Source: Promethearchaeota archaeon
Lineage (GTDB): Archaea > Asgardarchaeota > Lokiarchaeia > Sigyniarchaeales > SOKP01
NCBI GenBank assembly: GCA_048939015.1
Contig: JBHLPW010000006.1
Location: 1-64,000, forward strand
Reading direction: 5' to 3'
Length of the DNA: 64,000 bases
Shown: piece after piece, positions 40,318 to 55,829 of the stretch
How the letters are laid out: the number at the start of each line of letters is the position of its first letter
Position numbering within the stretch: position 1 is the first letter of the stretch
Made by a program: the position numbers and the translations under genes
Notes under the pieces: model-generated
Told to the model about the DNA's origin: nothing
The model's database searches: none
What the model saw: only the letters and a program-made list of their open reading frames with translations

Positions 40318-40567
40318 TTATTCTGGTATAATAATCGAGTGATCTTCTTTAATGCGATCTAAAACAATCTCAGTTTTAACTTCCTCAACTCCAGGAAGGT
40401 TGCGAAGTGTTTCTATAAGACCCATGGAGTCTGAATGATCTAGACATTTTGCCATAATGAACAAGGGATATTCTCCAGTGACCACATAAGCATATTTGAT
40501 TTTTTCCATCTTTTCAATCTCGTTTTTAACATCCTCTAAGGGATTTGTTGCATTTACTCTCAGTGAT
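40318..40567 (-). pseudogene. Orphan 3' half of the lrp gene (direct repeat of 43416..43665)
   Basis: 250 bp encoding the same peptide as the lrp C-terminus; 14 differences by hand alignment, all at third codon positions; no HTH half. Confidence 0.93.
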
Positions 40568-40655
40568 CCTATTACTTTTATAAATATCTACCACAAATTT
40601 ATACTATATTGATAATTCTTAAATCCAAAAAAAAGAATAAGATTTAAATTAGAAT

Positions 40656-43130
40656 TTATTCTGGAGTTCCTCGTTTTTTCATAAAGATATAGATACCAGC
40701 GATTACTGCGACTCCTCCGACTATAGACATAACGACTATAACTATAATAATGGTTGGATCTATTCCACCAGCAGGGATACTTTTAGTAATTGTTACTTCT
40801 TCAAACGTGAGATTTCCTAACGTATCATTCGCATAAAACGTAATGGTTATTGAACCTTCAGATAAAGCAGCCCATGCTGCTTGATCAATAGTACTATTCG
40901 TAGTAATATCAAATGTTGTTAAACCTCCATCAAGAGAATACCATATTGAGTCCAAGTGGTCATCTGTAACTGTAATTACGAAATCGGGGGCAGTAGTACC
41001 AAATTCGCTTCCAGCAGAAGGTGAATTGATTGTAATAGTTGGAGCTTGAGTGTCTTTTTCTATGCTTAACTCAGCAGATCCAATATTTCCTATTAGATCT
41101 GAAGCATAAACTGTGAAAGTAATACTACCGTCAGATATAGCATCCCACACAGATTGATCAATAGTTCCAGTAAATTCGGTAAATATGTAGTTATGTAATC
41201 CTCCATCTAGAGAATACCACGTTTCAACCAAATATACATCAGTTATTATAACATCGTAGCTTGGCGCATTGCTTTCAAATAAATCATCATCATTTGGCGA
41301 ATTAATCGTTATCTGGGGGGCACCGTCTTCTGCTATGGGTAAATAATCTATACTTCCAGCAGAACCACCGATATAGATATAGGGATCATCGACAATTCCA
41401 TCTTGTGGGGGATCATCTGGACTAGTCCAATTATCCCAGTAATTACCAATTGACGTGCTATTCCAAGTGTTATCAGTTCCATCATCAATCGCATGTATTC
41501 CATTTTCCAGAAAGAAATTTTTATAAATTGAGTTGTTATCACACCCTGAAGCAATGTGTATTCCCTGAGTATTATTATAGAAGATATTATCAATGATGTC
41601 ACTGTAATCGCAATTATTTTCTAGATAAATCCCGTCTTCTTCATTGTAATTTGCGGTGTTTCCCGTGATGTTAGTGTATTGGGATTGATGTAAATATATC
41701 CCATACCAAGTATTATAGTTAGCGGTGTTATCCGAGATCGTGTTATCATCGCAATTAGAAGCTAAATGTATTCCTCTTAAATTTTTATTTACGGTGTTTC
41801 CCGAGAGGGTGTTATTATCGCAATCAAGATATAATGCTATCCCATAATAATTGGTATTTTCACTTGCGGTGTTTTCCGAGAGGATGTTATTATCGCAATT
41901 ATTTTCTAGATATATCCCGTCTTCTTCATTGTAATTTGCGGTGTTTCCCGTGATGTTAGTGTAATGGGATTGATGTAAATATATCCCGAACTGAGTATTA
42001 TTGTTTGCGGTATTTCCTGAGATCGTGTTATCATCGCAATAATCTGAATGTATTCCTCTTAAATTTTTGTTTACGGTGTTTCCCGAGAGGGTGTTATTAT
42101 CGCAATCATGATATAATTCTATCCCATAATAATTAGTATTTTCACTTGCGGTGTTTCCCGAGATGGTGTTATCATCGCAGTTGGTTTCTAAACGGATTCC
42201 GTCATCTTCATTGTAGTTTGCAGTGTTATCCGAGATCGTGTTATTATTGCAATTAGTAGATAACCATATCCCATGATCGTCATTGTAGTTTGCGATGTTT
42301 CCCATGATGTTAGTGTAATTGGAGTGACTTAAATATATCCCGAAATGAGTATTATCGTTTGCGGTGTTTCCCGAGATCGTGTTATCATCGCAATAATTTA
42401 AAGTTATCCCATACCCAGTATTATCGTTTGCGGTGTTTCCCGAGAGGGTGTTTCTAGAGCAATAAGAATCTAAAGTTATTCCATAATTGTTGAGGCTTGC
42501 GTTATTTTCCGAGATGGTGTTATCATCGCAGTTGGTATCTAAATATATACCTGTATCATCATTATTATTTGCGGTGTTTCCCGAGAGGGTGTTATTACTG
42601 CAATCAGTAGATAACCATATCCCAATATTGTTGAGGCTTGCGTTGTTTCCCGCGATTATATTATCTTGACCACCGTTCAAATATATTCCAAAATAATTGT
42701 TATATATTTGATTATCTATTATTTGTCCATTAGTCACATTATCTAATCTAAGCCCTCCGAAGCCACCTAGCAGCATATCTTTTAATGTACAATTCCTGAC
42801 GGCAAAATATTTTCTTGAATTGGATATCATCAGGCAATCACCTAGCCCTGGTGAGAGAAAAGTTGAATCTTTTATCACATAGGGGTATTCCTTTGTACCG
42901 TCCCCTTCAGTGCACCAAGGTTGAGTTCTTGCCCATGCCCAATTGCCAAAGTTTGATCCATTAAACGGAAGGGTATCATCAATCCATATCCCAATATAAG
43001 TACCTGAAGTCTTTGGATTCTCAATGATAGGTTGATAATTACTACTTAAATTAAAGTTAAAATTAATAATTAAAGGAAAAACAAGCCCAATTATTAATAA
43101 AATCACTAACTTTTTTATATTGGATTTCAA
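40656..43130 (-). CDS. Membrane-anchored NosD/CASH beta-helix surface protein with recent internal repeats
   Basis: WCTEGDGTKEYPY cap, highly regular repeats, two WYSLDGG domains, GGIDPT-TM-KKRGTPE. Confidence 0.9.
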   Translation of the reverse strand: MKSNIKKLVILLIIGLVFPLIINFNFNLSSNYQPIIENPKTSGTYIGIWIDDTLPFNGSNFGNWAWARTQPWCTEGDGTKEYPYVIKDSTFLSPGLGDCLMISNSRKYFAVRNCTLKDMLLGGFGGLRLDNVTNGQIIDNQIYNNYFGIYLNGGQDNIIAGNNASLNNIGIWLSTDCSNNTLSGNTANNNDDTGIYLDTNCDDNTISENNASLNNYGITLDSYCSRNTLSGNTANDNTGYGITLNYCDDNTISGNTANDNTHFGIYLSHSNYTNIMGNIANYNDDHGIWLSTNCNNNTISDNTANYNEDDGIRLETNCDDNTISGNTASENTNYYGIELYHDCDNNTLSGNTVNKNLRGIHSDYCDDNTISGNTANNNTQFGIYLHQSHYTNITGNTANYNEEDGIYLENNCDNNILSENTASENTNYYGIALYLDCDNNTLSGNTVNKNLRGIHLASNCDDNTISDNTANYNTWYGIYLHQSQYTNITGNTANYNEEDGIYLENNCDYSDIIDNIFYNNTQGIHIASGCDNNSIYKNFFLENGIHAIDDGTDNTWNSTSIGNYWDNWTSPDDPPQDGIVDDPYIYIGGSAGSIDYLPIAEDGAPQITINSPNDDDLFESNAPSYDVIITDVYLVETWYSLDGGLHNYIFTEFTGTIDQSVWDAISDGSITFTVYASDLIGNIGSAELSIEKDTQAPTITINSPSAGSEFGTTAPDFVITVTDDHLDSIWYSLDGGLTTFDITTNSTIDQAAWAALSEGSITITFYANDTLGNLTFEEVTITKSIPAGGIDPTIIIVIVVMSIVGGVAVIAGIYIFMKKRGTPE
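41608..42650 (-). repeat. Intragenic tandem repeats (higher-order period about 282-285 bp, subunits about 69-75 bp)
   Basis: ctagata.atcccgtcttcttcattg at 41621 and 41906, related copy at 42188; recurring gcggtgtttcccgag. Confidence 0.85.
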
Positions 43131-43415: not shown

Positions 43416-43883
43416 CTACTCAGGAATAATAATCGAGTGATCTTCTTTTATTCGGTCTAAGACAATCTCTGTCTTGACTTCCTCAACTCCAGGAAGGTTG
43501 CGAAGTGTTTCTATAAGACCCATGGAGTCTGAATGATCTAGACATTTAGCCATTATGAACAAGGGATATTCTCCAGTGACCACATAAGCATACTTGATTT
43601 TTTCCATCTTTTCAATCTCGTTTTTAACATCCTCTAAGGGATTTGTTGCATTTACTCTCAGTGATGCCATTACCATTTCACGATATCCCAATTGGCGACA
43701 ATCAATCAACGCAACATACTTTTTAATCAATTCTTTCTCAAGTCGTTGAATACGTGCTCTTATCGCAGTAGCACTCTTATTAGTTTGGTGAGCAATTTCT
43801 CGGATAGTTATTTTTGCATCTTCCTGCAACAATTCGAGAATTTGTCTGTCTATATCATCTATAGTTCCATTTGTTATAACCAT
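43416..43883 (-). CDS. Lrp/AsnC family transcriptional regulator
   Basis: IDDIDRQILELLQEDAK..REIA HTH, RIQRLE, VTGEY RAM domain; divergent from the tus/hdr operon. Confidence 0.93.
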   Translation of the reverse strand: MVITNGTIDDIDRQILELLQEDAKITIREIAHQTNKSATAIRARIQRLEKELIKKYVALIDCRQLGYREMVMASLRVNATNPLEDVKNEIEKMEKIKYAYVVTGEYPLFIMAKCLDHSDSMGLIETLRNLPGVEEVKTEIVLDRIKEDHSIIIPE

Positions 43884-44025
43884 TAGAATAAACCTTTTTT
43901 TCCATATAGTAGCAATTTATAATTTATTAGTTTTTTATTAGTTTCTAACTCTCAAATAAAAAAGATTTTTCTTTACTTTTCTATAAGAATTACAAGCTTA
44001 TAATTTTTTTCACTACAATTTTATA

Positions 44026-44090
44026 TTTCTATAGTTTTGTTTGTTTAATAAATCATATGTTTATAGAAAAAAAAACTATAGTTTATATAT
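44026..44090. promoter_or_regulatory. Candidate operator palindromes next to a TATA box in the lrp/tusA divergent region
   Basis: Perfect palindrome AAACTATAGTTT (44073-44084) overlapping TTTATATA (44082-44089); related CTATAGTTTT at 44029-44038. Confidence 0.4.
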
Positions 44091-44178
44091 CACTTTGTAT
44101 TTTTTATCTATAACTGATATTGTTCATAATTAAATGAAATATCAAGTGAAAAAAAAATAAATAAAAAAACTAAAAAAA

Positions 44179-44412
44179 GTGAAAAAAATGGCTGTTAAAA
44201 CACTTGATTATACTGGATTGAAATGTCCGATGCCAGTGTTGAAAACTAAAAAGGAATTAAGAAGTTTGGTTTCTGGAGATGTAATAGAAGTTATCGCTGA
44301 TGATGTCGGCGCCAAAAAAGATATTCCAGCTCTTCTTAACAAGATTGGTGACGAATTAGTAGAGCTTCGAGAAGATAATGGAAATTTAACTTTTGTCATT
44401 AAAAAAGCGTAA
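44179..44412 (+). CDS. tusA: TusA-family sulfurtransferase
   Basis: LDYTGLKCPMP, ADD.GA..DI; likely start at 44188. Confidence 0.93.
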   Translation: MKKMAVKTLDYTGLKCPMPVLKTKKELRSLVSGDVIEVIADDVGAKKDIPALLNKIGDELVELREDNGNLTFVIKKA

Positions 44413-44429
44413 AATACGTTATACGGAGT

Positions 44430-44810
44430 ATGGATATTAATATGTCTAAATATGTTTTCTTTATTAGCACAGAGCCTTATAAATATCAAGCAGTAGATTC
44501 TCTGATAGAAATAGGTAAAGCTGCAATAAAAAAGGGGCATGAAATTACGGGTATATTTTTCTTTGGAACTGGTGTCTATAATCTTAAAAAGGATATTAGT
44601 TGCGGAAGTACTCTAAGAAACATTCCTGAAAAAATTGAGAAATTTTCTAAAGAGAATAATATTCGCGTTGCTGGATGTAGTACATGGGTAAGTATAACAG
44701 GGCTGAAAGAACCAGAATTCATTGAAGGAGCATCTGAAGAAGGTTTAGGGGACTTTTCAAATTGGGCGATTGGGGCTGATAAACTAATAGTATTTGGAGC
44801 AGGAGGTTAG
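44430..44810 (+). CDS. DsrE/TusD-like sulfur relay protein
   Basis: TEPY, GHEI..IFFF..GVYN, Cys in GCSTW, GLGDF. Confidence 0.85.
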   Translation: MDINMSKYVFFISTEPYKYQAVDSLIEIGKAAIKKGHEITGIFFFGTGVYNLKKDISCGSTLRNIPEKIEKFSKENNIRVAGCSTWVSITGLKEPEFIEGASEEGLGDFSNWAIGADKLIVFGAGG

Positions 44811-44815
44811 GTATT

Positions 44816-45184
44816 ATGGTAGAATCTGTGGTAATAATAAGTGATCAATCTCCTATTGGACGAAATTCTGCTGTTGAAGTTATTAGAATTGGTTCAGGAT
44901 TCACTGCACTTGGAGAATTCATTGATTGTAAAATTGTATTTATGGGGGATGCTGTGTATCTATTCAATAAAAATTGCGATCCTGAGGTGGTAGGAATGGA
45001 TTCTTTAGCAGAAGTATTAGAAATGGCTGATTTATCAGATTTAGAAGTAAATATTATTGAATCTGCTTTACAAGATGCGGGATTAACAAAAGAAGATATG
45101 ATTGACTATGAAAATTTGAAATTCATTGGATACGATGAACTAACAGATTTGATTGCTAATGCAGATGTGTCTTTTAGATATTAG
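44816..45184 (+). CDS. DsrF/TusC-like sulfur relay protein
   Basis: SP.G....E, FMGDAVY, C-terminal IANADVSFRY; position between DsrE and DsrH homologs. Confidence 0.8.
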   Translation: MVESVVIISDQSPIGRNSAVEVIRIGSGFTALGEFIDCKIVFMGDAVYLFNKNCDPEVVGMDSLAEVLEMADLSDLEVNIIESALQDAGLTKEDMIDYENLKFIGYDELTDLIANADVSFRY

Positions 45185-45200
45185 AGGAGGTTAGAAAAAG

Positions 45201-45542
45201 ATGTCAGAAAATCTTGATATGATATATTTGTTTGGATATAGCGGATTAACAGGAAGTCAATTAGAGAGATTATTACCTATTTTAAAAAGTCAAATTAAAA
45301 AGAACACAAAACTTGGATTAGTTTTAATTCATGATGGCGTTATCGGGATTACAACAAAGGGAAAGATGCCAAAAGAACTGGAAGAAATTCTCAGTTTAGA
45401 TGTTGAATTATTTGCTATGAAATCAGATATGAAAGCACGTGGTATTGCTCCTGAATATGTACATGACAAAATTAAAGCAATAGATTATGATGACCTTATA
45501 GATGTCATTGATACTACACCAAAAGTGATATCTTGGATGTAG
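45201..45542 (+). CDS. DsrH/TusB-like sulfur relay protein
   Basis: LIHDGV, DMKARG, IDYDDLID...VISW. Confidence 0.88.
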   Translation: MSENLDMIYLFGYSGLTGSQLERLLPILKSQIKKNTKLGLVLIHDGVIGITTKGKMPKELEEILSLDVELFAMKSDMKARGIAPEYVHDKIKAIDYDDLIDVIDTTPKVISWM

Positions 45543-45653
45543 GAGGACAAGAAAACAAAATTCAAAAAATTTTTTTGAAAAATCCTGGGTTAAACCAGAA
45601 AAATTAAACTATATATAACAAAAAAAAGGAAATTTCCAAAAAAAAACAAAAAA

Positions 45654-46088
45654 GTGGTAAATATGGCTGAAGATGCTGAAACAATAAACTTTATTGTAAA
45701 GGATAAGTCATTTGAGAAGTTTGCGATGATGGCTATCCTTGGTTCAACTGGTGACGCAATGGATATGAAAATGAATTTTTTCTTTACCTTTTGGGGTTTG
45801 AACTTATTAACCAAAAAGTTTAAACCTAAAGTTGCTGGAATGCCTACTCCTATGAAAGGTATGGGAGCAAAAATTTTCACAAAAAGGATGAAAAAGTTTG
45901 GAATTGAAGATCCATGGGCTTTAATTAAAGATGGTGTTGAAAACGGTAATTTAAAATTATATCCATGTCAAATGACAATGGATTTAATGGGTATTAAAGC
46001 TGAAGATATAATTGATTTCGCAGAACCACCGGTTGGAGCAGCTTCATTCTTAGAAATGAGCAATGGAGGCAGAATAGTCTCATTATAA
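45654..46088 (+). CDS. DsrE2 (DrsE_2)-family sulfurtransferase
   Basis: FFTFWGL, YPCQMTMDLMG, VGAASFL. Confidence 0.9.
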   Translation: MVNMAEDAETINFIVKDKSFEKFAMMAILGSTGDAMDMKMNFFFTFWGLNLLTKKFKPKVAGMPTPMKGMGAKIFTKRMKKFGIEDPWALIKDGVENGNLKLYPCQMTMDLMGIKAEDIIDFAEPPVGAASFLEMSNGGRIVSL

Positions 46089-46131
46089 ATTAAATTTTAA
46101 TAAATTTTTTTTTTATTTTTTAACAAAAAAA

Positions 46132-46698
46132 GTGATGATAATGTCTGATGTAAAAGAAGAACACCGTGAATTTAAAACGGATGATGATTTTGATCAAGAA
46201 TTTTTTAAAAGTATAGAGAGAAGATCAAATATCTGGCAGTGCATCCAATGTGGTACATGCACAGCGAGCTGTGAAAGTGGAAGATGGACTGCTTTAAAAA
46301 CTCGTTCAATTGTAAGAAAAGTGGTATTAGGAGACCTTTCAGTGCTAAGGGACCCTGATATTTGGTTATGTACAACATGTTATCAATGTTATGAGCGATG
46401 TCCACGTGATGTAAGACCTACTGATGTAATTATGGAGTTAAGAAATTACGCTACTAAATTAGGTAATATTTCTCCTAACCATAGAGCGGTTGTAGGTTAT
46501 TTAAAGAATTTTGGACATGCTGTACCAATTAATGATGAAGTAAGAAAAAGAAGAGTCGATTTAGGACTAGAAGAATTACCTCCTACTGCGTTTAAATTTA
46601 AGCAAGAGGGGGATGATAAAGATTTAAAGAATATTGAAGAATATATGTTTAATTTACCTCCAGTTAAGGAGGATAAAAAAGAAAAGGAGGAGGCATAA
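46132..46698 (+). CDS. hdrC: Heterodisulfide reductase subunit C
   Basis: CIQCGTCTASC, IWLCTTCYQCYERCPR, GHAVPIN, LGLEELPPT. Confidence 0.95.
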   Translation: MMIMSDVKEEHREFKTDDDFDQEFFKSIERRSNIWQCIQCGTCTASCESGRWTALKTRSIVRKVVLGDLSVLRDPDIWLCTTCYQCYERCPRDVRPTDVIMELRNYATKLGNISPNHRAVVGYLKNFGHAVPINDEVRKRRVDLGLEELPPTAFKFKQEGDDKDLKNIEEYMFNLPPVKEDKKEKEEA

Positions 46699-46700
46699 AA

Positions 46701-47618
46701 TTGGTTAAAGAAAACACATTTGCGTTCTTTTTAGGGTGTATAATGCCTAATCGATATCCTGCGATCGAGAAATCAACGAAATTTGTCATGGATAAATTAG
46801 GATATGAACTCTTAGATATGGAAAGAGCAACTTGTTGTCCTGCTCCAGGAGTTTTCCGTTCTTTCAATAAATTTGATTGGATGGTGGCAGCTGCAAGAAA
46901 TCTTTGTATTGCTGAAAAATTAGATGCTGATATTTTAACAGTTTGTAATGGCTGTTTTGGCACACTTCAAGAAGTAAATAAACACCTTAAAGAAAACGAA
47001 GAACATCGTGAAATGGTAAACGAAAAACTCAAATTACTGGGAGACTATGAATTTAAAGGAACGATTAATGTACGCCATGTAGCTGAAGTTTTGGGTTATG
47101 AAATTGGACCATGGGGAATTGAAGATCATATTGTTAGAAAATTAAATCTTAAAGCGGCGATTCATTATGGGTGTCATTTCTTAAAGCCTACCAGAATTAG
47201 GGAAATTGAAAGTTCTGAAGGTCCAACAATAATTGAAGATTTTATTGAAGTATTAGGAGTTGAATCGGTACGATTTAAAGAACAGCTTACATGCTGTGGT
47301 GCAGGTGGAGGGGTAAAAGCATATTCTGGTGATGCAAGTATGACAATTTTCGGTGAGAAAATGAAAAACATCGATGAAGTAAAACCAGATATAATCTTAG
47401 ATATCTGTCCATTTTGTCATTTACAATTTGAAACAGGCCAAGATTATTTAAATAAAAACAAAGGCTGTAATTATGATTATCCTGTAATTCATATCTCACA
47501 ACTCGTTGCCTATTGTATGGGAATGGATCAAGAATTTATTGGTCTTCAATATCAGTTAATGGGACAGGAGTTTATATTTGGAGGAGAAGAATTAAATAAA
47601 GAGGAGGAGGTTGCTTAA
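46701..47618 (+). CDS. hdrB: Heterodisulfide reductase subunit B
   Basis: FLGCIMPNRYP, TCCPAPG, CNGC, HYGCH, CCGAGGG, CPFCHLQ (two intact CCG domains). Confidence 0.96.
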   Translation: MVKENTFAFFLGCIMPNRYPAIEKSTKFVMDKLGYELLDMERATCCPAPGVFRSFNKFDWMVAAARNLCIAEKLDADILTVCNGCFGTLQEVNKHLKENEEHREMVNEKLKLLGDYEFKGTINVRHVAEVLGYEIGPWGIEDHIVRKLNLKAAIHYGCHFLKPTRIREIESSEGPTIIEDFIEVLGVESVRFKEQLTCCGAGGGVKAYSGDASMTIFGEKMKNIDEVKPDIILDICPFCHLQFETGQDYLNKNKGCNYDYPVIHISQLVAYCMGMDQEFIGLQYQLMGQEFIFGGEELNKEEEVA

Positions 47619-49646
47619 ATGACAGTAAAAGATGAAAAAGTAACCGATTCAAGTAATATTAGTGATAATGAAAAAGAAGAAGAACCTAAAATAGGCGTTT
47701 TTATATGTCATTGTGGTCATAATATCGCAGGGACAGTTGATGTGGCTAAAGTCGCAGATTATGCTAAAAATTTGCCTAATGTGGTTAAAGCGGAGCATTA
47801 TATGTTTATGTGTTCTAAACCAGGAGTTCAAATGCTCAAAGATTCTATTGAAGAATTAGGAGTTAATCGTAGTGTAGTAGCCAGTTGCTCGAAAAACCAA
47901 CATGGCAGAACTTTTGCTAAAGCAATTGAAGAGATGGGACTTAATAAGCACAGACATCAACAAGTAAATATTAGAGAATTTAATAGTTGGGTACATCAGA
48001 AAGAGAAAGATAAAGCAACCAATAAAGCAATGAAGTTAGTGGAAGCTGGAGTAAATAGGGCAAGGAAACTAGAGGATGTTGAAACTCGAAGAGTCCCAAC
48101 TACTAAAGCCGCGTTAGTTATTGGTGCTGGAATTGCTGGACTTCGTGCTTCTTATGATCTAGCCGAATTAGGGATACCAGTTTATTTAATTGAGAGACTT
48201 TCAACTATCGGAGGGCATATGACTCAATTAAATAAGACATTTCCAACACTTGAGTGTCCACAGTGTTCAATAAGTCCTTTGACTAATGGAGTTGCAAATC
48301 ACCCACTTGTTGAGCTTTATACAAACGCTCAGATAAAAAACGTACAAGGATCGATGGGTAATTTTGAAGTTGAGGTTGAAATAAAACCTCGATACGTTAA
48401 AGATAATTGTACATCTTGTGGTGAATGTGCTGCTCATTGTCCTGTGGAAGTCCCTAGTGAATGGGACAGTGGAATGTCAATGAGAAACGCAATTTATAAA
48501 GCTTATCCGCAAGCAATTCCCGCTACGTATGTGAGAGACAAGAAAAATTGTATTGAATGTAATACGTGTGTTAATGTTTGTCCCGTTCAGGCTGTAGATT
48601 TTTCAATGCAAGCAGAAACTAAAACTTTTAAAGTTGGTTCTATTGTTGTTGCTGCAGGTTATGATGAGTATGACCCATCAGAAATAGAACCATACCATTA
48701 TGGTCAAGAAGGATTTGAAGATGTTATAACTCAACTCAAATTAGAAAGGATGTTAGCTCCAGGTTCTCTTACTAACAGTCAAGTACTTCGTCCTTCTGAT
48801 GGTAAAATCCCCAAAAGTGTCGTAATGATACAATGTGTAGGAAGTAGAAATGATCAAGTAGGAAATCAATATTGTACAGGAGTTTGTTGTAAATTTGCAA
48901 TTAAGAATGCTCGAATTGTAAAAGAAATGTATCCAGATACAGATGTTACAATTTGCTATATTGATGTGAGAACTCCTGGTTTAAACTTTGAAGAATTATA
49001 TAAATCTGCACAAGAAGTGGGTGTAAGATTCATTAGAGGACGTCCATCAGAGATCCTAAGAGATCCTGTGTCTGGAGAATTAAAGGTAATTGTTGAAGAT
49101 ACATTAAGTCAAACTCCTTTAAAACTAAAAGCAGATATGGTAGTATTATCAGCAGCGATGGTACCTCCCGAAGGTATCGGTCCATTAGGATCAAAGTTAC
49201 AGGTTCTACGCTCAAAAGAAGGATTTTTAAAAGAATTCCATATTAAAATGAATCCGACTTTAAGCAGTAAAGGAGGAATATTTTTAGCGGGAGCAATTCA
49301 AGGTCCTAAAGATATTTCTGAAAGTGTTGCTCAAGCAGGTAATGCTGCAGCTATAGCTGCTGCTCCATTAGTTAAGGGCTATATTGAAAAGGAAATGTTA
49401 ATTCCTTCAGTAGATTTTGAATTATGCGTAAGATGTAGTTTATGTAAAACTGTATGTGCTCCAGCAGCGATAGAAATAAATGATGATGGAACGCCTATGA
49501 TTAATGAAGTTGCTTGTAAATCATGTGGTATGTGCATGCCTGTATGTCCTACGGGAGCAATTCAATTATTAAATTTTAGTGATGATCAATTGTTAGATGA
49601 AATAATCGCAATATCAGGAGGAGGTGCTGTATGCGAAAATGAGTGA
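47619..49646 (+). CDS. hdrA: Heterodisulfide reductase subunit A
   Basis: ICHCG.NI, GAGIAG, KTFPTLEC..C, inserted ferredoxin, LERM, QCVGSR, C..CC..AIK, GPKDI, C-terminal ferredoxin. Confidence 0.96.
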   Translation: MTVKDEKVTDSSNISDNEKEEEPKIGVFICHCGHNIAGTVDVAKVADYAKNLPNVVKAEHYMFMCSKPGVQMLKDSIEELGVNRSVVASCSKNQHGRTFAKAIEEMGLNKHRHQQVNIREFNSWVHQKEKDKATNKAMKLVEAGVNRARKLEDVETRRVPTTKAALVIGAGIAGLRASYDLAELGIPVYLIERLSTIGGHMTQLNKTFPTLECPQCSISPLTNGVANHPLVELYTNAQIKNVQGSMGNFEVEVEIKPRYVKDNCTSCGECAAHCPVEVPSEWDSGMSMRNAIYKAYPQAIPATYVRDKKNCIECNTCVNVCPVQAVDFSMQAETKTFKVGSIVVAAGYDEYDPSEIEPYHYGQEGFEDVITQLKLERMLAPGSLTNSQVLRPSDGKIPKSVVMIQCVGSRNDQVGNQYCTGVCCKFAIKNARIVKEMYPDTDVTICYIDVRTPGLNFEELYKSAQEVGVRFIRGRPSEILRDPVSGELKVIVEDTLSQTPLKLKADMVVLSAAMVPPEGIGPLGSKLQVLRSKEGFLKEFHIKMNPTLSSKGGIFLAGAIQGPKDISESVAQAGNAAAIAAAPLVKGYIEKEMLIPSVDFELCVRCSLCKTVCAPAAIEINDDGTPMINEVACKSCGMCMPVCPTGAIQLLNFSDDQLLDEIIAISGGGAVCENE

Positions 49647-50091
49647 ATGTGAATATATTGAACCAGAAGTACTTGAAAAGATGGAAAATATTGTAGTTTT
49701 TATGTGTAATGAATGTGGACAAGGTTCAGCAAACACAGCAGGAGTGGCTCGAATGGCATATAATCCAGCAATTCGAATAGTTCGAGTCCAATGTACAGGT
49801 CAAGTTGGTCCTATTCAGATTATGGATGCTTTAAGTAACGGAGCGGATTCTGTTGCGTGTGTTGGTTGTTGTTTAGGAGCTTGTCATTTCTTTAATGGCA
49901 ATATTTTATCCATGCATAGAATAAAATTAATGAAAAAGTTATTTAAGGAGTTAGGTTATAGTGATCAGTTTGTTAATCAATATACTTCGAGAGCTGCTGA
50001 AGGAGAAACGGCAGTCGGAGATTTTGAAGATATTGTGGAGCGATTAGCAACTGCAATTAGAGAGGAGGGGACTTTCAAAGATGGATGTTAG
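49624..50091 (+). CDS. mvhD: MvhD-family [2Fe-2S] protein
   Basis: CNEC, RIVRVQCTG, GAD, GC..G.CHF.NGN; likely start at 49639. Confidence 0.9.
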   Translation: MLYAKMSECEYIEPEVLEKMENIVVFMCNECGQGSANTAGVARMAYNPAIRIVRVQCTGQVGPIQIMDALSNGADSVACVGCCLGACHFFNGNILSMHRIKLMKKLFKELGYSDQFVNQYTSRAAEGETAVGDFEDIVERLATAIREEGTFKDGC

Positions 50092-51322
50092 AGTATTTCA
50101 GTTTAATGGATGTAATAAATGCTTTAATGAGACGATACTTTTAAAAGGAGAATCCAAATATAAAGTAGAATTTATACAAGATCCTCAAAACTGGAAAGAA
50201 CAAAAGACTGAGGTATCAATTATCACTGGATTTTTACTACCAGAGAATAAAGAAATTTTAAATAAGATTAAAGCAAATTCAGAAAAAGTAATTGCATATG
50301 GAAATTGTACTACAACAGGAGGGATTTTTGCTCTTGCTAATCAAAAAAGTCATGATGTAACTCCATTAAAAAACATAATCGAAGATTCAATTAATATTAA
50401 TGGATGTTTAGGGGAAATTGAGGAATTAAAGCTAGAGATTGAAGATAATGATCTCCCAAAATTAAAGAATCTATGTATAGTATGTGGAAGACGGAAAACA
50501 TGTGATTACTTAGACGATGTAAAACGTCAAATTGAATTAGGAGATACTGAGACATGTTTTAATGATCTTGGGTATCTTTGTAATGGTTTTATATCAAAAG
50601 AATGCAAAGAACGATGTATTGATTATAATGCCCCATGTAGAGGTTGTAAACCAATTATAGAACGTTCTGGAATCAGAATGTTAGGAATGTTTGGAACTCT
50701 TATGGGAAATATTGAAGTAGCGACTGAACACTCTGAAAAGGGAGCAACTGATAAATTAGCAGATAGGGATGATGATATAACGGAAAGATTGCCAGATATA
50801 GTAGGAAATTTCTTTAGATTTACTTTACCAACATCAGGATTACCAAAAGGCAGAATTCCTTCAAATGGTAATATTTTAGATGACGTTTTTACTGGAAGAC
50901 TTATTGAAGAATTACCTTTGATTTCAGGATTATTAGGAGGAGATCATTCAATCTCACTAACATTAAAAATAATTGAAACTTACGAGGAAGCAAATGAAAT
51001 TGAAGTAAGCGAAAAAACAAAAAATTATCGAAGTCAATTGCTAAAATTGGAAGATCAACTCCAAAAGGCGATTCAAAGTAAAGATCTGGAAGAATATAAG
51101 AAAATTACTGAAGAAATTCGTAAAATTGCGGGAAATATGAATTTATCTAATTTAACTTATGGAGGATTCAGGTCTCAAATTGATGATAATGATGATTTTG
51201 AAGAATATAAAGCCCACGTTTTTGAAGTGGTCGAAGGAACATATAAAAATGGTTCTGTTGAATTTACAATTGATCCAGTTGGCATTGTAAAACAAATTAA
51301 AATTAAAGAGGGATATGCATGA
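50081..51322 (+). CDS. MvhG-like Fe-S subunit fused to a degenerate [NiFe]-hydrogenase large-subunit remnant
   Basis: GCNKC, AYGNC..GG, NGC, CIVC, CF..GYLC.G...C..C...PCRGC; C-terminal ~150 aa resembles MvhA segments but has no Cys. Confidence 0.75.
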   Translation: MDVRVFQFNGCNKCFNETILLKGESKYKVEFIQDPQNWKEQKTEVSIITGFLLPENKEILNKIKANSEKVIAYGNCTTTGGIFALANQKSHDVTPLKNIIEDSININGCLGEIEELKLEIEDNDLPKLKNLCIVCGRRKTCDYLDDVKRQIELGDTETCFNDLGYLCNGFISKECKERCIDYNAPCRGCKPIIERSGIRMLGMFGTLMGNIEVATEHSEKGATDKLADRDDDITERLPDIVGNFFRFTLPTSGLPKGRIPSNGNILDDVFTGRLIEELPLISGLLGGDHSISLTLKIIETYEEANEIEVSEKTKNYRSQLLKLEDQLQKAIQSKDLEEYKKITEEIRKIAGNMNLSNLTYGGFRSQIDDNDDFEEYKAHVFEVVEGTYKNGSVEFTIDPVGIVKQIKIKEGYA

Positions 51323-53787
51323 GTTTTGAATTATTAAGAGAAGAAATAGTGGATGCTGGTCTTTGTCAAGGATGTGGTTTATGTGCTGGTTCATGTAAAC
51401 ATATTGAAATGGATCTAAGGCGTCCAACTTTAAAAGATTATTGTATATTGGAAAGAGATGGAAAAGATTGTGGCAAATGCTATCAAAATTGTCCTCAAGT
51501 AATCCAGAAAAAATTTAAAGAAAAGCAGCCTCTTGCGATTTACTCATTAAGAAGTAAAGACCCAGCTATTTTGAATAAAGCTTCAAGTGGAGGCTTTGTA
51601 ACTACTTTTGCTAAAGAATTGTTGGAGAATGAATCTCTTAAAGAAATAGTAATGGTTCAAGAAGAAGACGAGAAACCTACAGCTGAAATAGTTTCTGATC
51701 CTAATGACGTAGTTCAAAAGGCTGGGGTTATTTATGGTAGGTCTGGAGTACTGCAGAAATTAGTAGAACTTACCGGTGAAACATTTGAGCCGATTGGCAT
51801 AGTTGGTGTACCCTGTGAAATGCGTGGTGCTGCTGAACTTGAAGAAGATATGAATCGAGAAATTTTAAAAATTGGATTGTTTTGTAGTTCCCAAATGAGA
51901 ACTGAACAAACAGACAAGGGTTTAGTATGTTCTCCATGTTGTAATGGTTGTCCCTCTGGGGTCAATGCTCAAGGATATATATCATTGATACGTCAAGGAA
52001 AGTATCAAGATGCTGTTGATTTAATTAGAGAAAGTAATCCCCTTCCGTCTATATGTGGAAGAATTTGTACAAATGAGTGCGAGCATGGTTGTACTCTAAT
52101 TGGAGACGACCATCCTGTCGCGATTCGTGAATTAAAGAAATTTGTTACTGAATGGGAAATTGAAAGAGCTAAAAACACTTCAAAACAAAAAGCTAAATTA
52201 CCCAAAAATGCTAAAAAAGTAGCAATTATAGGATCTGGACCAGCAGGATTAACAGCGGCATATTATTTAAGGAGAATGGGTTATGCACCAACAATTTTTG
52301 AGAAGACAGATCAAACAGGAGGAATGCTAAGATTTGGTGTACCGCAGTTTCGATTACCTAATTATGTATTAGATTATGATGTAGGTAGGATCGTAGATTC
52401 TGGAGTTAAGGTTGTACTTAATAAGCCTTTAGGGCCTGAAATGTCTATTGATGATTTAAAGAATGATGGATTTGAAGCCATATTTATTGCAACTGGACAA
52501 TATAAACCCCGTACCTTACACTTAGAAGGAGAAGATTTACCAAATGTGCATGTAGCAATTCATTTTCTTATGGATAGAAAGTATCGATACTGGGAAAATA
52601 AAGAAGAATTTAAAGGCAAAACTTTAGGAATAATCGGAGGTGGACCAGTCGCAGTTGATGTTGCACAAACAGCTCTTAGATTAGGTGCAGATAAAGTTCA
52701 CCTTGTAGATATAATGTCAAAAGAACAACTCGAATTAGTACTACGAGAAATACCTGAAAATGAAATGGAATTTATGGAATATCACTTTACGACCTCAACT
52801 TCTAAAATCACTCAGAATAAAGATATAAAATTAGTTCTAAATTCTTATAAGATTGAATGGGGTAAACCTGATAAAAGTGGGAGGAAACCATTAATTAAAA
52901 TTGAAGAATCCGATTATCAGATACCAGTAGATTCCATTGTAATTGCAGTTGGTCAAGCAGTAGATTTTGAACAAATAGATGCTGCTACCAATAATATATT
53001 GGAAAAAGAACGAAATAGAATCAAAGTAAACGAGGTTACATTTGAAACAAATATACCTGGTGTTTTTGCTGGTGGAGATATAATCAGTAATTCTAAGGCT
53101 GTAGCCATTGCTGCTATAGCTCATGGAAAAGAAGCGGCAATTTCAATAGACAGATACTTAAAGGGAGAGAACTTAATGGAAGGAAGATACAAGATAAAGA
53201 ATTCCTTTTTCACTGGACCTAAAAAACCTCCAAAAGACTATTCCTTGAAACCAGATACTTTAGAAGAAGCAACTGAAGAAATTAATTGGAGTTTTGAGGA
53301 AATTGATCAAATGTTCAATGAAGATATGGCTTTACAGGAGGCTAGAAGATGTCTAAGTTGTAATCACTTCTGTTCTCATTGTCAAGATTTCCCTGCAATA
53401 TATTCAGATCTGACAGCGGGTGAAGTAGGATCACAAGAAGGCTATACTACAGTGGTAGTTTGGACAGAAAGAGGAAAAAATTTTGTTGAAGAAGCGATTA
53501 AAAAGGGATTATTCGAACAAGGAAAAGTCGATGATGAAGCATTGAAAAATGCTATAAATCTAAAATCAAAACGTGAATTGATGAATTTTGAAAAAACCCC
53601 AAGACAACAAGTATTAAACTATGTATCACTTCAAGGACCTAGTACTATTACAGATATCGTAAACCGAACAGGTCTTGAACCTAAAAAAGCAAGATATGAA
53701 GCGCTCCGATTAGTTCAATTAATGCAATTAGAGATGAAAGCTGAACCTGATATGGAGGAGCCAATATTTTCTATTATATGTGATTAA
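51319..53787 (+). CDS. FrhB-like protein with inserted GltD/NfnB-type NAD(P)H oxidoreductase and C-terminal wHTH
   Basis: 2x[4Fe-4S]; FrhB motifs SSGGFVT, VGVPC, IGLFC; GltD motifs CP, NPLP.ICGRIC, IIGSGPAG, GGMLRFG, VFAGGD, EARRCLSC; FrhB resumes at CSHCQDF..DLTAG.VGS..GYTTV. Confidence 0.85.
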   Translation: MSFELLREEIVDAGLCQGCGLCAGSCKHIEMDLRRPTLKDYCILERDGKDCGKCYQNCPQVIQKKFKEKQPLAIYSLRSKDPAILNKASSGGFVTTFAKELLENESLKEIVMVQEEDEKPTAEIVSDPNDVVQKAGVIYGRSGVLQKLVELTGETFEPIGIVGVPCEMRGAAELEEDMNREILKIGLFCSSQMRTEQTDKGLVCSPCCNGCPSGVNAQGYISLIRQGKYQDAVDLIRESNPLPSICGRICTNECEHGCTLIGDDHPVAIRELKKFVTEWEIERAKNTSKQKAKLPKNAKKVAIIGSGPAGLTAAYYLRRMGYAPTIFEKTDQTGGMLRFGVPQFRLPNYVLDYDVGRIVDSGVKVVLNKPLGPEMSIDDLKNDGFEAIFIATGQYKPRTLHLEGEDLPNVHVAIHFLMDRKYRYWENKEEFKGKTLGIIGGGPVAVDVAQTALRLGADKVHLVDIMSKEQLELVLREIPENEMEFMEYHFTTSTSKITQNKDIKLVLNSYKIEWGKPDKSGRKPLIKIEESDYQIPVDSIVIAVGQAVDFEQIDAATNNILEKERNRIKVNEVTFETNIPGVFAGGDIISNSKAVAIAAIAHGKEAAISIDRYLKGENLMEGRYKIKNSFFTGPKKPPKDYSLKPDTLEEATEEINWSFEEIDQMFNEDMALQEARRCLSCNHFCSHCQDFPAIYSDLTAGEVGSQEGYTTVVVWTERGKNFVEEAIKKGLFEQGKVDDEALKNAINLKSKRELMNFEKTPRQQVLNYVSLQGPSTITDIVNRTGLEPKKARYEALRLVQLMQLEMKAEPDMEEPIFSIICD

Positions 53788-53826
53788 ATAATAAATAAAT
53801 TTAATAAATACCAAGAGGTAAAGATA

Positions 53827-54066
53827 ATGAAATACGATATGGAATTAAACGTCTGCGGGTTAGTATGTCCTGTCCCAGCTTTAAAAACTAAAAAACAGCT
53901 CATGAAAATGAGACCTGGCACAGTTTTAAAAGTTATAACAGACTATAAACCTGCTAGTGAATCTGTTCCCCGTGATTTAGCAAAACAAACTAAGCATAAA
54001 CACTTAGGAACGGAATTTCTCGAAGACGATGAACAATGGTATATCTATTTTGAAGCTGTAAAATAA
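53827..54066 (+). CDS. tusA: Second TusA-family sulfurtransferase
   Basis: LNVCGLVCPVP, LKVITDY. Confidence 0.9.
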   Translation: MKYDMELNVCGLVCPVPALKTKKQLMKMRPGTVLKVITDYKPASESVPRDLAKQTKHKHLGTEFLEDDEQWYIYFEAVK

Positions 54067-54231: not shown

Positions 54232-54984
54232 ATGCAGGAAGTAGAAAATATATATCAAGATGCTTATTACAGAACAAAAAACTTCAAAGGGTTATTCATT
54301 CACGATATTTCAAATTTATTTCAGATAATCAGCAATTCTATTGAGTTTTGTGAATCAATGTTAAAAAATGAAGTAAAAACAGATGAAATTTTAGAGTTTT
54401 TTTATATGATTGCGAAACAGATAGACCGTGGTAAGAAATTGATTAGAAATGTTAGAAATCTTTCAGAAATGGAAGAATATGAAATGCCTTTAGTACCTGT
54501 TGAAATATTTTCTACTTTGGAGAATGTTTTTAGTTTTACTTATGCAAGTTTTCCTAAAAAGGAAATTGAAATTAATATGTACCCTAATCATGGAAACCTT
54601 TATATTATGGCAAATGAGCTACTGAGTGAAGTATTTGAAAATATAATTATAAATTCTATTTATTACAACAGAAATAGAGTTGTTAAAATTGAAGTTGTAG
54701 CTTCTATCATTGAAATTCATCATAAGAATTATGTAAAGATCGAGTTTAAGGATAATGGTATTGGTATCGATAATAATCGAAAACAGGTGATATTTCAAGA
54801 AACTCATCTAAAGAACAAGCAATCTAATGGTATGGGAATTGGTCTATCATTGGTTGCTAGAGTAATTGAATTATACGGTGGAGAAATTAGGGTAAAAGAT
54901 CATATAGAGGGAGATTCCACGAAAGGGAGCAATTTCATAATCTTGATTCCATTAATTAAAAAAAAAAAAGAAGGTAATGTGTAA
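54232..54984 (+). CDS. Histidine kinase lacking a sensor domain
   Basis: IHDISN H-box about 24 aa from the start, ENIIINS, DNGIGI, GMGIGLSLV; paralog of the 20972 kinase core. Confidence 0.9.
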   Translation: MQEVENIYQDAYYRTKNFKGLFIHDISNLFQIISNSIEFCESMLKNEVKTDEILEFFYMIAKQIDRGKKLIRNVRNLSEMEEYEMPLVPVEIFSTLENVFSFTYASFPKKEIEINMYPNHGNLYIMANELLSEVFENIIINSIYYNRNRVVKIEVVASIIEIHHKNYVKIEFKDNGIGIDNNRKQVIFQETHLKNKQSNGMGIGLSLVARVIELYGGEIRVKDHIEGDSTKGSNFIILIPLIKKKKEGNV

Positions 54985-55829
54985 TGACAATTAGTTATCA
55001 AAATACAAAACCACTAAAATTGAAGAAAAATATTAAATGGTATACTTATGTAGATTCTTCTCTTGACTTAAAACTAAAAGTCTTTATGGAAGAATATCGC
55101 TTGAATAACCAAGCGAGAATTATAAGAGATTTTGTAAATCATTGCATTGATTATTTCGAAGCAATGTTTAAGAAGAAATCTTATAATGATCCTCAGGTCT
55201 ATGATGAGAAAGAACTTGATAATTTAATAAAAAAAGCAATTACAACATATGAAAATGGTAATAATTTTCATGGAGAATTAAAGCAAAAACTTTCACCGCT
55301 TAAATTATCACTGTTAATGCTTAATAACTATATCGAAGAAAAAAATATGCTCAAAGAGGGCATTCAAAATGCAATAGACGCCTTAAACGAGTTAGAGATT
55401 TCTGTAAAACGACATTTTGAGGAACCTAGTATTGTAAGGTTTATAAAAAAAATAGATCTCTTATATGTTGAAGACAATGAATTGGAACGGAAAACCATAG
55501 AGCATTTTTTTAGAGCAAATGAAGTAAATATTAAATCCGTAGAAACTTCTGACGAGGCTTTATACATTCTTAAGAGCTTAACTCCTAAAGTCATATTACT
55601 TGATATTAATTTAAAGACTAGTAATATAAATGGAGATCGCCTTTGCCAGATGTTAAAATCAAGTTCTCAGTACAATTCAATTCCAATAGTATTAATATCA
55701 GCTGTTTTCTTCAATAATACCAAAGAACAAATTTTAACTGAAACAGGAGCCGATGAAGTCATTTTTAAACCTATTGACAGATTAAAAGATTTAAACGTTC
55801 TATTTAAATACTTTAAAGAAAAATATTGA
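54984..55829 (+). CDS. Response regulator with N-terminal RHH-like domain (paralog of 22239..23066)
   Basis: KWYTYVDS.LD.KLK, ELKQKLSPLK, YVEDN, LLDINL, FKPI. Confidence 0.85.
   Translation: MTISYQNTKPLKLKKNIKWYTYVDSSLDLKLKVFMEEYRLNNQARIIRDFVNHCIDYFEAMFKKKSYNDPQVYDEKELDNLIKKAITTYENGNNFHGELKQKLSPLKLSLLMLNNYIEEKNMLKEGIQNAIDALNELEISVKRHFEEPSIVRFIKKIDLLYVEDNELERKTIEHFFRANEVNIKSVETSDEALYILKSLTPKVILLDINLKTSNINGDRLCQMLKSSSQYNSIPIVLISAVFFNNTKEQILTETGADEVIFKPIDRLKDLNVLFKYFKEKY

Follow-up and report, generated by a model that had tools for sequence, protein, structure and literature searches.

Under nickel limitation, Methanothermobacter marburgensis passes electrons from reduced cofactor F420 (F420H2) to the heterodisulfide reductase (Hdr) HdrABC through a hydrogenase-free complex, ElpABC-HdrABC (PDB 8RVU), in which ElpA is a molybdopterin-less relic of FdhA, ElpB a homologue of FdhB/FrhB and ElpC a homologue of MvhD (PMC12350162). 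Here we analyze a gene cluster of comparable design in an Asgard archaeon, located at positions 43416-54066 of a 64,000-nucleotide stretch of DNA (contig JBHLPW010000006.1, assembly GCA_048939015.1), hereafter called the window. Like Elp-Hdr, the cluster combines a methanogen-type HdrABC with a flavoprotein of the FrhB/FdhB type, a connector of the MvhD type and a relic that is devoid of cofactor. Unlike in Elp-Hdr, where the relic derives from FdhA, the relic of the cluster derives from a [NiFe] hydrogenase large subunit and is fused to MvhG, the FrhB of the Loki order (to which the window belongs) carries a nested NfnB/GltD-type NAD(P)H module, and genes for sulfur carriers are part of the putative operon. 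The host is moreover not a methanogen, and ComA, an enzyme of coenzyme M synthesis, was not found in its 95%-complete genome. The resemblance is one of design, by analogy and not by orthology. We give about an even chance to the reading that the cluster encodes a soluble, Hdr-type, flavin-based bifurcating or confurcating complex with sulfur carriers as its clients, in which HdrB would act on a carrier-borne S-S bond.

Other described systems share parts of this arrangement. HdrA, HdrB, HdrC, MvhD and MvhG are homologous to the subunits of Mvh-Hdr, with the cofactor ligands kept, but no functional MvhA is encoded in the operon; about 155 N-terminal residues of it remain and the nickel-binding cysteines are gone. 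FlxABCD-HdrABC of sulfate reducers and DsrK, which acts with a DsrC trisulfide, are an NADH-linked Hdr and an HdrB/D-like CCG protein, respectively, and are thought to reduce the disulfide or trisulfide of a sulfur-carrier protein. To our knowledge the substrate of Flx-Hdr, like that of the operon described here, is without proof. The operon differs from Flx-Hdr in its input, which consists of an FrhB::GltD fusion and the MvhG relic protein instead of FlxABC, and no DsrC was found. A similar relay of TusA and DsrEFH, in which TusA loads the DsrE cysteine, belongs to the type II cluster (yeeE-tusA-dsrEFH) known from bacteria and some archaea. A relay of that type with yeeE is present elsewhere in the genome, whereas the relay in the window has no yeeE and has in addition a DsrE2/E3-like carrier and a second TusA. 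Finally, the sHdr-LbpA system with its TusA/DsrE3 cascade also ties an Hdr-type enzyme genetically to sulfane-sulfur carriers (PMC11094781, PMC6067878). It differs from the operon in its gene order (hdrC1B1A-hyp-C2B2), in its short HdrA (~350 residues) without ferredoxin domains, and in its obligatory LbpA and lipoate-ligase genes.

The comparison matters since Asgard archaea encode dozens of Hdr paralogues and make no methane and, within the scope of the present searches, no coenzyme M, so that the substrate of their Hdr enzymes is a question central to Asgard energy metabolism and to models of hydrogen and sulfur syntrophy. The operon offers a concrete and conserved candidate for that substrate, namely carrier-bound sulfur. 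It also provides, after Elp-Hdr, a second independent case of a catalytic subunit that has decayed to a cofactor-free scaffold as Hdr changes its electron donor. The sole Asgard Hdr forms in the main text of Imachi et al. are MvhADG-HdrABC and FlxABCD-HdrABC (PMC7015854).

The window is part of a contig (C46) in a genome of 4.86 Mb and 125 contigs with an estimated completeness of 95%. Relatives of this genome include Promethearchaeum syntrophicum MK-D1 (NZ_CP042905.2) and Candidatus Harpocratesius repetitus, which places the host in the Promethearchaeum/Loki order and agrees with the Asgard origin proposed in a preliminary description that was made from the letters of the DNA. Gene identities were assigned from a listing of open reading frames (ORFs) and from Pfam and NCBIfam (TIGR) profile scans of the window proteins. 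These analyses recovered 13 genes between 43416 and 54066, with the coordinates and identities given in the preliminary description, which had reported a co-oriented cluster of sulfur-carrier genes and hdrCBA-mvhD with a divergent Lrp. The Lrp/AsnC-family regulator (43416..43883, minus strand; Pfam HTH_AsnC-type and AsnC_trans_reg) is followed on the plus strand by twelve genes in the order tusA1-dsrE-dsrF-dsrH-DsrE2/E3-like-hdrC-hdrB-hdrA-mvhD-MvhG-like-FrhB::GltD-tusA2. Neighbouring genes among the twelve overlap or are separated by gaps of at most 111 bp.

The three Hdr subunits are adjacent. HdrC (46132..46698) has two [4Fe-4S] motifs with eight conserved cysteines and a score of 174 bits against TIGR03290 (cut-off 160), and HdrB (46701..47618) has two complete CCG domains (Pfam CCG twice) and scores 374 bits against TIGR03288 (cut-off 345). 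Full-length HdrA (47619..49646, 675 residues) aligns over residues 22-666 with the solved chains 9sfi_A, 8rvu_a and 5odc_A at approximately 638 bits, and contains the N-terminal Fe-S, flavin adenine dinucleotide (FAD), inserted ferredoxin and C-terminal ferredoxin domains of the full-length bifurcating type. By comparison, the alignment with the short sHdrA chain 6tjr_A reaches 135 bits and covers residues 340-584 only. HdrA falls below the strict NCBIfam equivalog cut-offs (740 versus 1100 bits and 632 versus 1400 bits). The LERM and AIK residues, which had been pointed out as neighbours of the bifurcating FAD, are both found and correspond in the alignment to VERM and ALK of a solved methanogen HdrA. 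Where the solved structure has a non-standard residue X, which is probably selenocysteine, HdrA of the operon has a cysteine. MvhD (49624..50091; Pfam FlpD, 111 bits), the [2Fe-2S] connector to HdrA, has conserved cysteines at C28, C31, C57, C82, C83 and C87, and all Fe-S cysteines of HdrB, HdrC and MvhD are kept in the orthologues.

HdrB matches methanogen HdrB (PDB 9sfi_C and 5odc_B) at 315 bits, with roughly half of the residues identical. Its ten CCG cysteines are conserved in the orthologues, being kept across the 21 sequences compared (one column in 20 of 21), in agreement with the proposal that a single HdrB with both CCG domains intact is encoded; these two domains are presumed to form the thiol/disulfide site. 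An sHdr identity was ruled out by the gene order, the length of HdrA and the lack of LbpA in the cluster, which has a single hdrC-hdrB-hdrA set as compared to the two HdrB/C pairs of sHdr. The cluster contains no lipoate-binding gene, and Pfam searches detected no LbpA or lipoate-protein ligase among the window proteins from 38 to 58 kb, as had been noted earlier; two GCV_H homologues were found in the genome, on other contigs than that of the window. Judged by the TIGR scores and the alignments of HdrA and HdrB to solved methanogen chains, the Hdr of the operon is of the methanogen type and not sHdr, as previously suggested.

The close similarity of HdrB to the HdrB that reduces the heterodisulfide of coenzymes M and B (CoM-S-S-CoB) keeps a small-molecule disulfide among the candidate substrates. 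HdrB could reduce a low-molecular-weight (hetero)disulfide or polysulfide, with the carriers supplying or recycling its sulfur or being simply co-regulated neighbours. Such a role would fit the observation that both HdrB and HdrC pass the TIGR models of CoB-CoM heterodisulfide reductase, and also that most of the approximately 35 HdrA paralogues and several HdrBC pairs of the genome have no sulfur carriers nearby. We consider it unlikely, given that ComA was not found, that the carriers stay with the Hdr subtype of the operon through rearrangement across two classes, and that a second Hdr set of the genome also lies beside a sulfur relay (see below). The paralogues are a feature of the relatives as well, with approximately 35 HdrA-like matches per genome, many of them with 2-4 in-frame TGA codons and, in the window genome, with two or three, a pattern consistent with selenocysteine. 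None of the HdrA paralogues within the genome is more than approximately 45% identical to the HdrA of the operon, whereas the HdrA of the Thorarchaeota loci described below reaches 57-59%.

The gene downstream of mvhD (50081..51322) encodes a protein of 413 residues that had been described as an mvhG derivative. The MvhG part of that assignment holds, as residues 1-256 span whole MvhG chains (9sw2_E and 5odc_E) and the cluster cysteines are kept. The assignment can be refined to MvhG fused to a relic of MvhA (residues ~257-413), based on a conserved extension of approximately 155 residues. A profile of the extension matched [NiFe] large subunits best among solved proteins, with FrhA first (E = 0.005) and sulfhydrogenase alpha, HyhL and MvhA next, and all were matched at the L1 region, which is the stretch with the first nickel-ligand motif. 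The hhalign program aligned the extension with residues 41-106 of MvhA from the same genome (E = 8e-4, probability 24%). An AlphaFold2 (AF2) model of the extension alone (predicted local distance difference test score, pLDDT, 82) gave top Foldseek matches almost only to large subunits and to NuoD, their complex I homologue; the E-values were weak, 0.01 at best, and the family was consistent. A Foldseek search with the model of the whole protein returned small subunits only, and the relic is seen only when it is folded alone. At the nickel-ligand motif, RICGIC of MvhA is replaced by GLLGGD (CGIC to GG-D), and both the C-terminal ligand motif and the C-terminal half of the large subunit are missing. 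We conclude that the extension is a metal-free relic of a [NiFe] large subunit in which the NiFe site has been lost.

The cluster is hence hydrogenase-less, as first proposed, in the sense that it holds no [NiFe] active site and only a relic of the large subunit. The accompanying statement that no intact mvhA is present is true for the cluster but not for the genome, which has an intact copy on another contig (C95). In a BLASTP comparison of the MvhG-like protein with the genome's true MvhG (438 residues), only the Fe-S part was aligned, with 27% identity. The family of MvhG-like proteins with the extension is very small, with 30 representatives (E <= 1e-10) out of 1.84 billion. The most divergent of the relic proteins (P0008 and P0010) are 37-39% identical to Thorarchaeota proteins and still have the arginine of the L1 motif of large subunits (IASRVFGVRS), apparently a less decayed state.

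At the place where MvhA would be expected, the cluster encodes a flavoprotein of the NAD(P)H/F420 type, as the preliminary description had anticipated and as is supported by Pfam and structure-chain matches. This FrhB::GltD fusion (51319..53787, 822 residues; Pfam FrhB_FdhB_N, Fer4_20, Pyr_redox_2 and FrhB_FdhB_C) consists of an FrhB domain split by a complete NfnB/GltD-type unit (Fer4_20 and Pyr_redox_2) with both dinucleotide-binding glycine motifs. Residues 201-617 align with NfnA (9n5u_A) at 320 bits, and the two ends match FrhB and the N-terminal domain of Fsr. The protein is presumed to be the electron-input subunit, with an NAD(P)H-FAD-[4Fe-4S] unit inside an F420/FAD domain. In Thorarchaeota the same position is occupied by a plain FrhB of 347-356 residues, and the NAD(P)H module would accordingly seem to have been inserted later. 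A profile search of the window genome detected CofH above the cut-off, which makes the presence of F420 plausible.

Six genes of the cluster had been assigned to sulfur carriers with persulfide cysteines, and this is borne out for TusA1, TusA2, DsrE, DsrF and the DsrE2-like protein, but not for DsrH, which is cysteine-free. TusA1 (44179..44412; Pfam TusA, 86 bits) has a CPMP active-site motif. DsrE (TusD-like, 44430..44810; Pfam DsrE, TIGR03012 below cut-off) has Cys83 in 15 of 15 orthologues, and DsrF (TusC-like, 44816..45184; Pfam DsrE, TIGR03010 weak) has Cys38 in 14 of 15. DsrH (TusB-like, 45201..45542; Pfam DsrH) scores 53.5 bits against TIGR03011 (cut-off 49.2) and contains no cysteine at all. 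The next gene (45654..46088) encodes a soluble carrier of the PF13686 family (Pfam DrsE_2, 82 bits) with a single cysteine, Cys105, present in 13 of 13 orthologues. While the family assignment stands, the name DsrE2 does not, as the score against the NCBIfam DsrE2 model is 52 bits with a cut-off of 210; the protein is better described as DsrE2/DsrE3-like. TusA2 (53827..54066; Pfam TusA, 64 bits) closes the cluster. Alignments showed that the Cys-Pro-x-Pro motif, including its cysteine, is invariant in the orthologues of both TusA proteins. TusA2 orthologues always have a second cysteine, at position 10 or near the C-terminus. It is located four residues before the active cysteine (CxxxCP) in the genus of the window and close to the C-terminal end (FECVK) in Thorarchaeota and MK-D1 relatives, and some orthologues have both. 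This second cysteine may bear on the question of acceptor and direction. For tusA1, the listed start is GTG at 44179 (MKKMAV...), and an in-frame ATG at 44188, three codons downstream, is equally plausible.

The association of the carriers with the Hdr core is conserved. A tblastn comparison of the window proteins with orthologous regions recovered all genes of the cluster in MK-D1, in six species of the genus and in two further families of the order, and the cluster is also complete in a closed genome of 6,035,313 bp. In Thorarchaeota the gene order is Lrp, hdrCBA-mvhD-mvhGx-frhB-tusA2-dsrEFH, with tusA1 nearby, and identities to the window proteins drop to 30-60%, HdrA being 57-59% and the carriers 30-46% identical. 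The Thorarchaeota thus have the same genes in a different order, and the synteny check proposed in the preliminary description showed that in two Asgard classes the sulfur-relay genes belong firmly to the unit. In both Loki-order and Thorarchaeota loci an lrp gene lies with the cluster, being either divergent or inserted between dsrE2 and hdrC.

Loci were then compared at the species level, using one genome per species and the MvhG-like protein to find each locus. All 71 loci with an MvhG-like protein are from Asgard archaea. The genes dsrE, dsrF and dsrH were all present in 35 of the 36 loci that extended at least 7 kb upstream and at least 4 kb downstream of the MvhG-like gene, and the single exception still has two copies of tusA and a DsrE2-like gene. 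Among the carrier genes, tusA2 is the one most constantly found beside the Hdr core, being present in 60 of the 61 loci whose downstream flank is long enough. The linkage between Hdr and sulfur carriers is far beyond chance. The input subunit was FrhB::GltD in 51 loci, plain FrhB in nine and neither in one. Three loci of the Loki order (L071, L080 and L092) have plain FrhB, followed by tusA2 and an extra hdrC-hdrB pair.

Other sulfur-relay genes of the genome were also located. On contig C95 (22483-29704, corresponding to L028:2483-9704), a tusA-yeeE/yedE(Sulf_transp)-dsrE-dsrF-dsrH cluster is divergent from mvhG-mvhA-hdrC-hdrB, where mvhG (438 residues) and mvhA (435 residues) are intact hydrogenase genes. 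The two genes yeeE and mvhA lie 2-6 kb apart also in MK-D1 (G038) and in four relatives (G003, G012, G028 and G036). The Sulf_transp gene on C95 is the only copy in the genome, and none is present in the cluster of the window. A cysteine desulfurase gene adjoins another tusA on contig C8, a pair that probably serves biosynthesis. No match to DsrC/TusE (PF04358), the usual acceptor of DsrEFH, was obtained in the 95%-complete genome by a search that was positive in the E. coli control, and siroheme sulfite reductase domains were likewise not found in the genome. The conserved synteny, the second Hdr/sulfur-relay neighbourhood on C95 and the failure to find DsrC, ComA or siroheme sulfite reductase together make it probable that the carriers are of importance to Hdr. 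Contig C89 (2718-3815, L027) has a third dsrE-dsrF-dsrH set, whose identity to that of the window is 43-48%. It adjoins a gene for a 233-residue protein without Pfam match and a Methyltransf_31 methyltransferase gene, and is not linked to Hdr.

Homologues of TusA, TusBCD and DsrEFH act in bacterial transfer RNA (tRNA) thiolation. The tus/dsr genes might therefore serve 2-thiolation of tRNA, thiolation of a cofactor or the trafficking of selenium to selenoprotein HdrA paralogues, with hdr being an incidental neighbour. A selenium role would be in line with the weak matches of TusA1 to YedF selenium-metabolism models (NCBIfam), with the many HdrA paralogues with in-frame TGA codons and with the response of TusAD transcripts to selenium in Methanococcus (PMC11097638). 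The HdrA of the operon, however, uses cysteine and not selenocysteine, TusE/DsrC was not found, the MnmA family is represented in the genome only by weak and partial PP-loop matches, and incidental neighbours would not be expected to show synteny in 35 of 36 loci that survives rearrangement. A role confined to tRNA thiolation was rejected on these last three grounds, and we regard this group of explanations as highly improbable.

The YeeE-type importer next to TusA-DsrEFH on C95 and the failure to detect siroheme sulfite reductase would also fit a role in sulfur assimilation or detoxification, not energy conservation, in which sulfane sulfur derived from imported S0, polysulfide or thiosulfate is converted to sulfide for use in biosynthesis. 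A model of this kind has been proposed for the H2-linked Hdr of Nerearchaeum in a preprint from 2025 (10.1101/2025.07.22.663070), and the accessory distribution of the cluster described below points the same way. On the other hand, the cluster of the window has no importer, and its DNA is seen in sediment metagenomes, where we assume that free sulfide is usually available. Furthermore, a full bifurcating HdrA with ferredoxin domains exceeds a simple assimilatory need, and we consider the assimilatory role quite improbable.

Returning to a bifurcating or confurcating complex that serves the carriers, the path of the electrons would, by analogy with the solved Mvh-Hdr and Elp-Hdr structures, run as follows. 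NAD(P)H, or possibly F420H2, would be oxidised at the FrhB::GltD flavoprotein, and the electrons would pass to the Fe-S clusters of the MvhG part, with the MvhA relic acting as a scaffold only, and onwards through the [2Fe-2S] cluster of MvhD to HdrA's bifurcating FAD. One branch would lead through the ferredoxin domains of HdrA to ferredoxin. The other would run via HdrC and reach the two non-cubane clusters in HdrB, where an S-S bond on or between TusA2, the DsrE2/E3-like protein, DsrEFH and TusA1 would be cleaved, or formed if the reaction runs in reverse. The Lrp-type regulator would control the unit. We infer the physical complex, the substrate of HdrB and the direction of the reaction alike. 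A wider proposal is that HdrB of Asgard archaea acts physiologically on sulfane sulfur, or on an S-S bond, of TusA/DsrE-family carriers, as part of a DsrC-independent soluble, flavin-based bifurcating or confurcating enzyme that would exist with two inputs in one genome, one H2-linked with the YeeE importer and the other NAD(P)H/F420-linked with a fossil hydrogenase. This proposal is tentative, and in our judgment rather more apt to fail than to hold. A structure prediction for the complex of HdrB and TusA2 gave ipSAE values of 0.00, 0.42 and 0.00, without controls, and was not used as evidence either way.

Several points weigh against the carrier-serving complex. Energetically, the standard potentials are approximately -320 mV for NAD(P)H, -340 to -360 mV for F420H2 and -450 to -500 mV for ferredoxin, as compared to approximately -260 to -270 mV for S0 or polysulfide/HS- and -140 mV for CoM-S-S-CoB. 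On these values, bifurcation driven by NAD(P)H or F420H2 to ferredoxin and a persulfide-type acceptor would be uphill and is doubtful, which suggests that the acceptor is a disulfide of higher potential, for example between carriers, or that the complex runs in the confurcating, sulfide-activating direction. The pocket of HdrB may fit a small disulfide rather than a protein. The action of HdrB on TusA/DsrE carriers is drawn from genomic association, and the twelve-gene operon structure is likewise read from gene spacing. The cluster is also accessory, as searches recovered it from 31 of the 53 genomes of the genus and from 79 of the 400 of the phylum, and the 22 genus genomes in which it was not found include two closed ones. 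Finally, expression in MK-D1 is unremarkable. The orthologues DSAG12_01139-01151 have 182-348 reads per kilobase per million mapped reads (RPKM), similar to the neighbouring genes (PMC7015854, Supplementary Table 3), and no condition-dependent expression data were found for the MK-D1 operon. The RPKM values show transcription of the operon, and not regulation or co-transcription.

The potentials bear on the same architecture operating in reverse, in which reduced ferredoxin, sulfide and a carrier thiol would yield NAD(P)H or reduced F420 together with a carrier persulfide, which would provide sulfane sulfur in activated form in a sulfidic habitat. With NAD(P)+ or F420 as the mid-potential partner, the potentials favour this direction, and both TusA proteins, DsrE and the DsrE2-like protein keep the persulfide cysteines that it would require. 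The lack of detectable DsrC or sulfite reductase for an oxidative consumption of sulfane sulfur agrees with it, and Imachi et al. treated the Asgard Mvh-Hdr as confurcating (PMC7015854). Against this, the genome has cysteine desulfurases, one of them beside a tusA, so that there is no evident need for another route to persulfide, and the cluster encodes no acceptor pathway for the persulfide product. We consider operation in this direction possible but fairly unlikely.

The carrier-serving complex is directly testable, as the operon is present and transcribed in the cultured P. syntrophicum MK-D1. In this strain, a second operon (L014:672-4570, DSAG12_01134-01138) with the order hdrC-hdrB-hdrA-mvhD-ferredoxin is divergent from tusA1, and the sulfur-relay genes are thus flanked by two Hdr operons. 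Among the sequencing runs that contain DNA of the window, there was no RNA run, only DNA metagenomes from sediment, mangrove and marsh.

The preliminary description had left open whether the system was already described. A full-text literature search, with subscription journals outside its reach, found no paper that links the hydrogenase-less operon to the sulfur relay or that describes the MvhG-MvhA relic. Parts of it have nevertheless been reported. The supplement of Imachi et al. 2020 lists the Hdr half of the operon, its visible entries being without the carriers (PMC7015854), and the Nerearchaeum preprint proposed an H2-dependent reduction of persulfides on TusA and DsrE by an Asgard Hdr that is coupled to a group 3c hydrogenase (10.1101/2025.07.22.663070). 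The novelty is therefore partial, since the Hdr half, the persulfide-Hdr proposal and, with Elp-Hdr in 2025, a relic-scaffold input precede the present analysis.

The genes on either side of the cluster appear to be local. A histidine kinase (HATPase_c) and response regulator pair downstream of tusA2 (54232-55829) was rejected as part of the operon because it is absent from the orthologous loci, and it is probably a local insertion. On the other side, a 257-nt direct repeat (40319-40575 and 43417-43673, 94% identity) copies the 3' end of lrp. The two copies flank a gene for an 824-residue NosD/beta-helix surface protein (40656-43130), suggesting that the surface-protein gene was inserted next to lrp.

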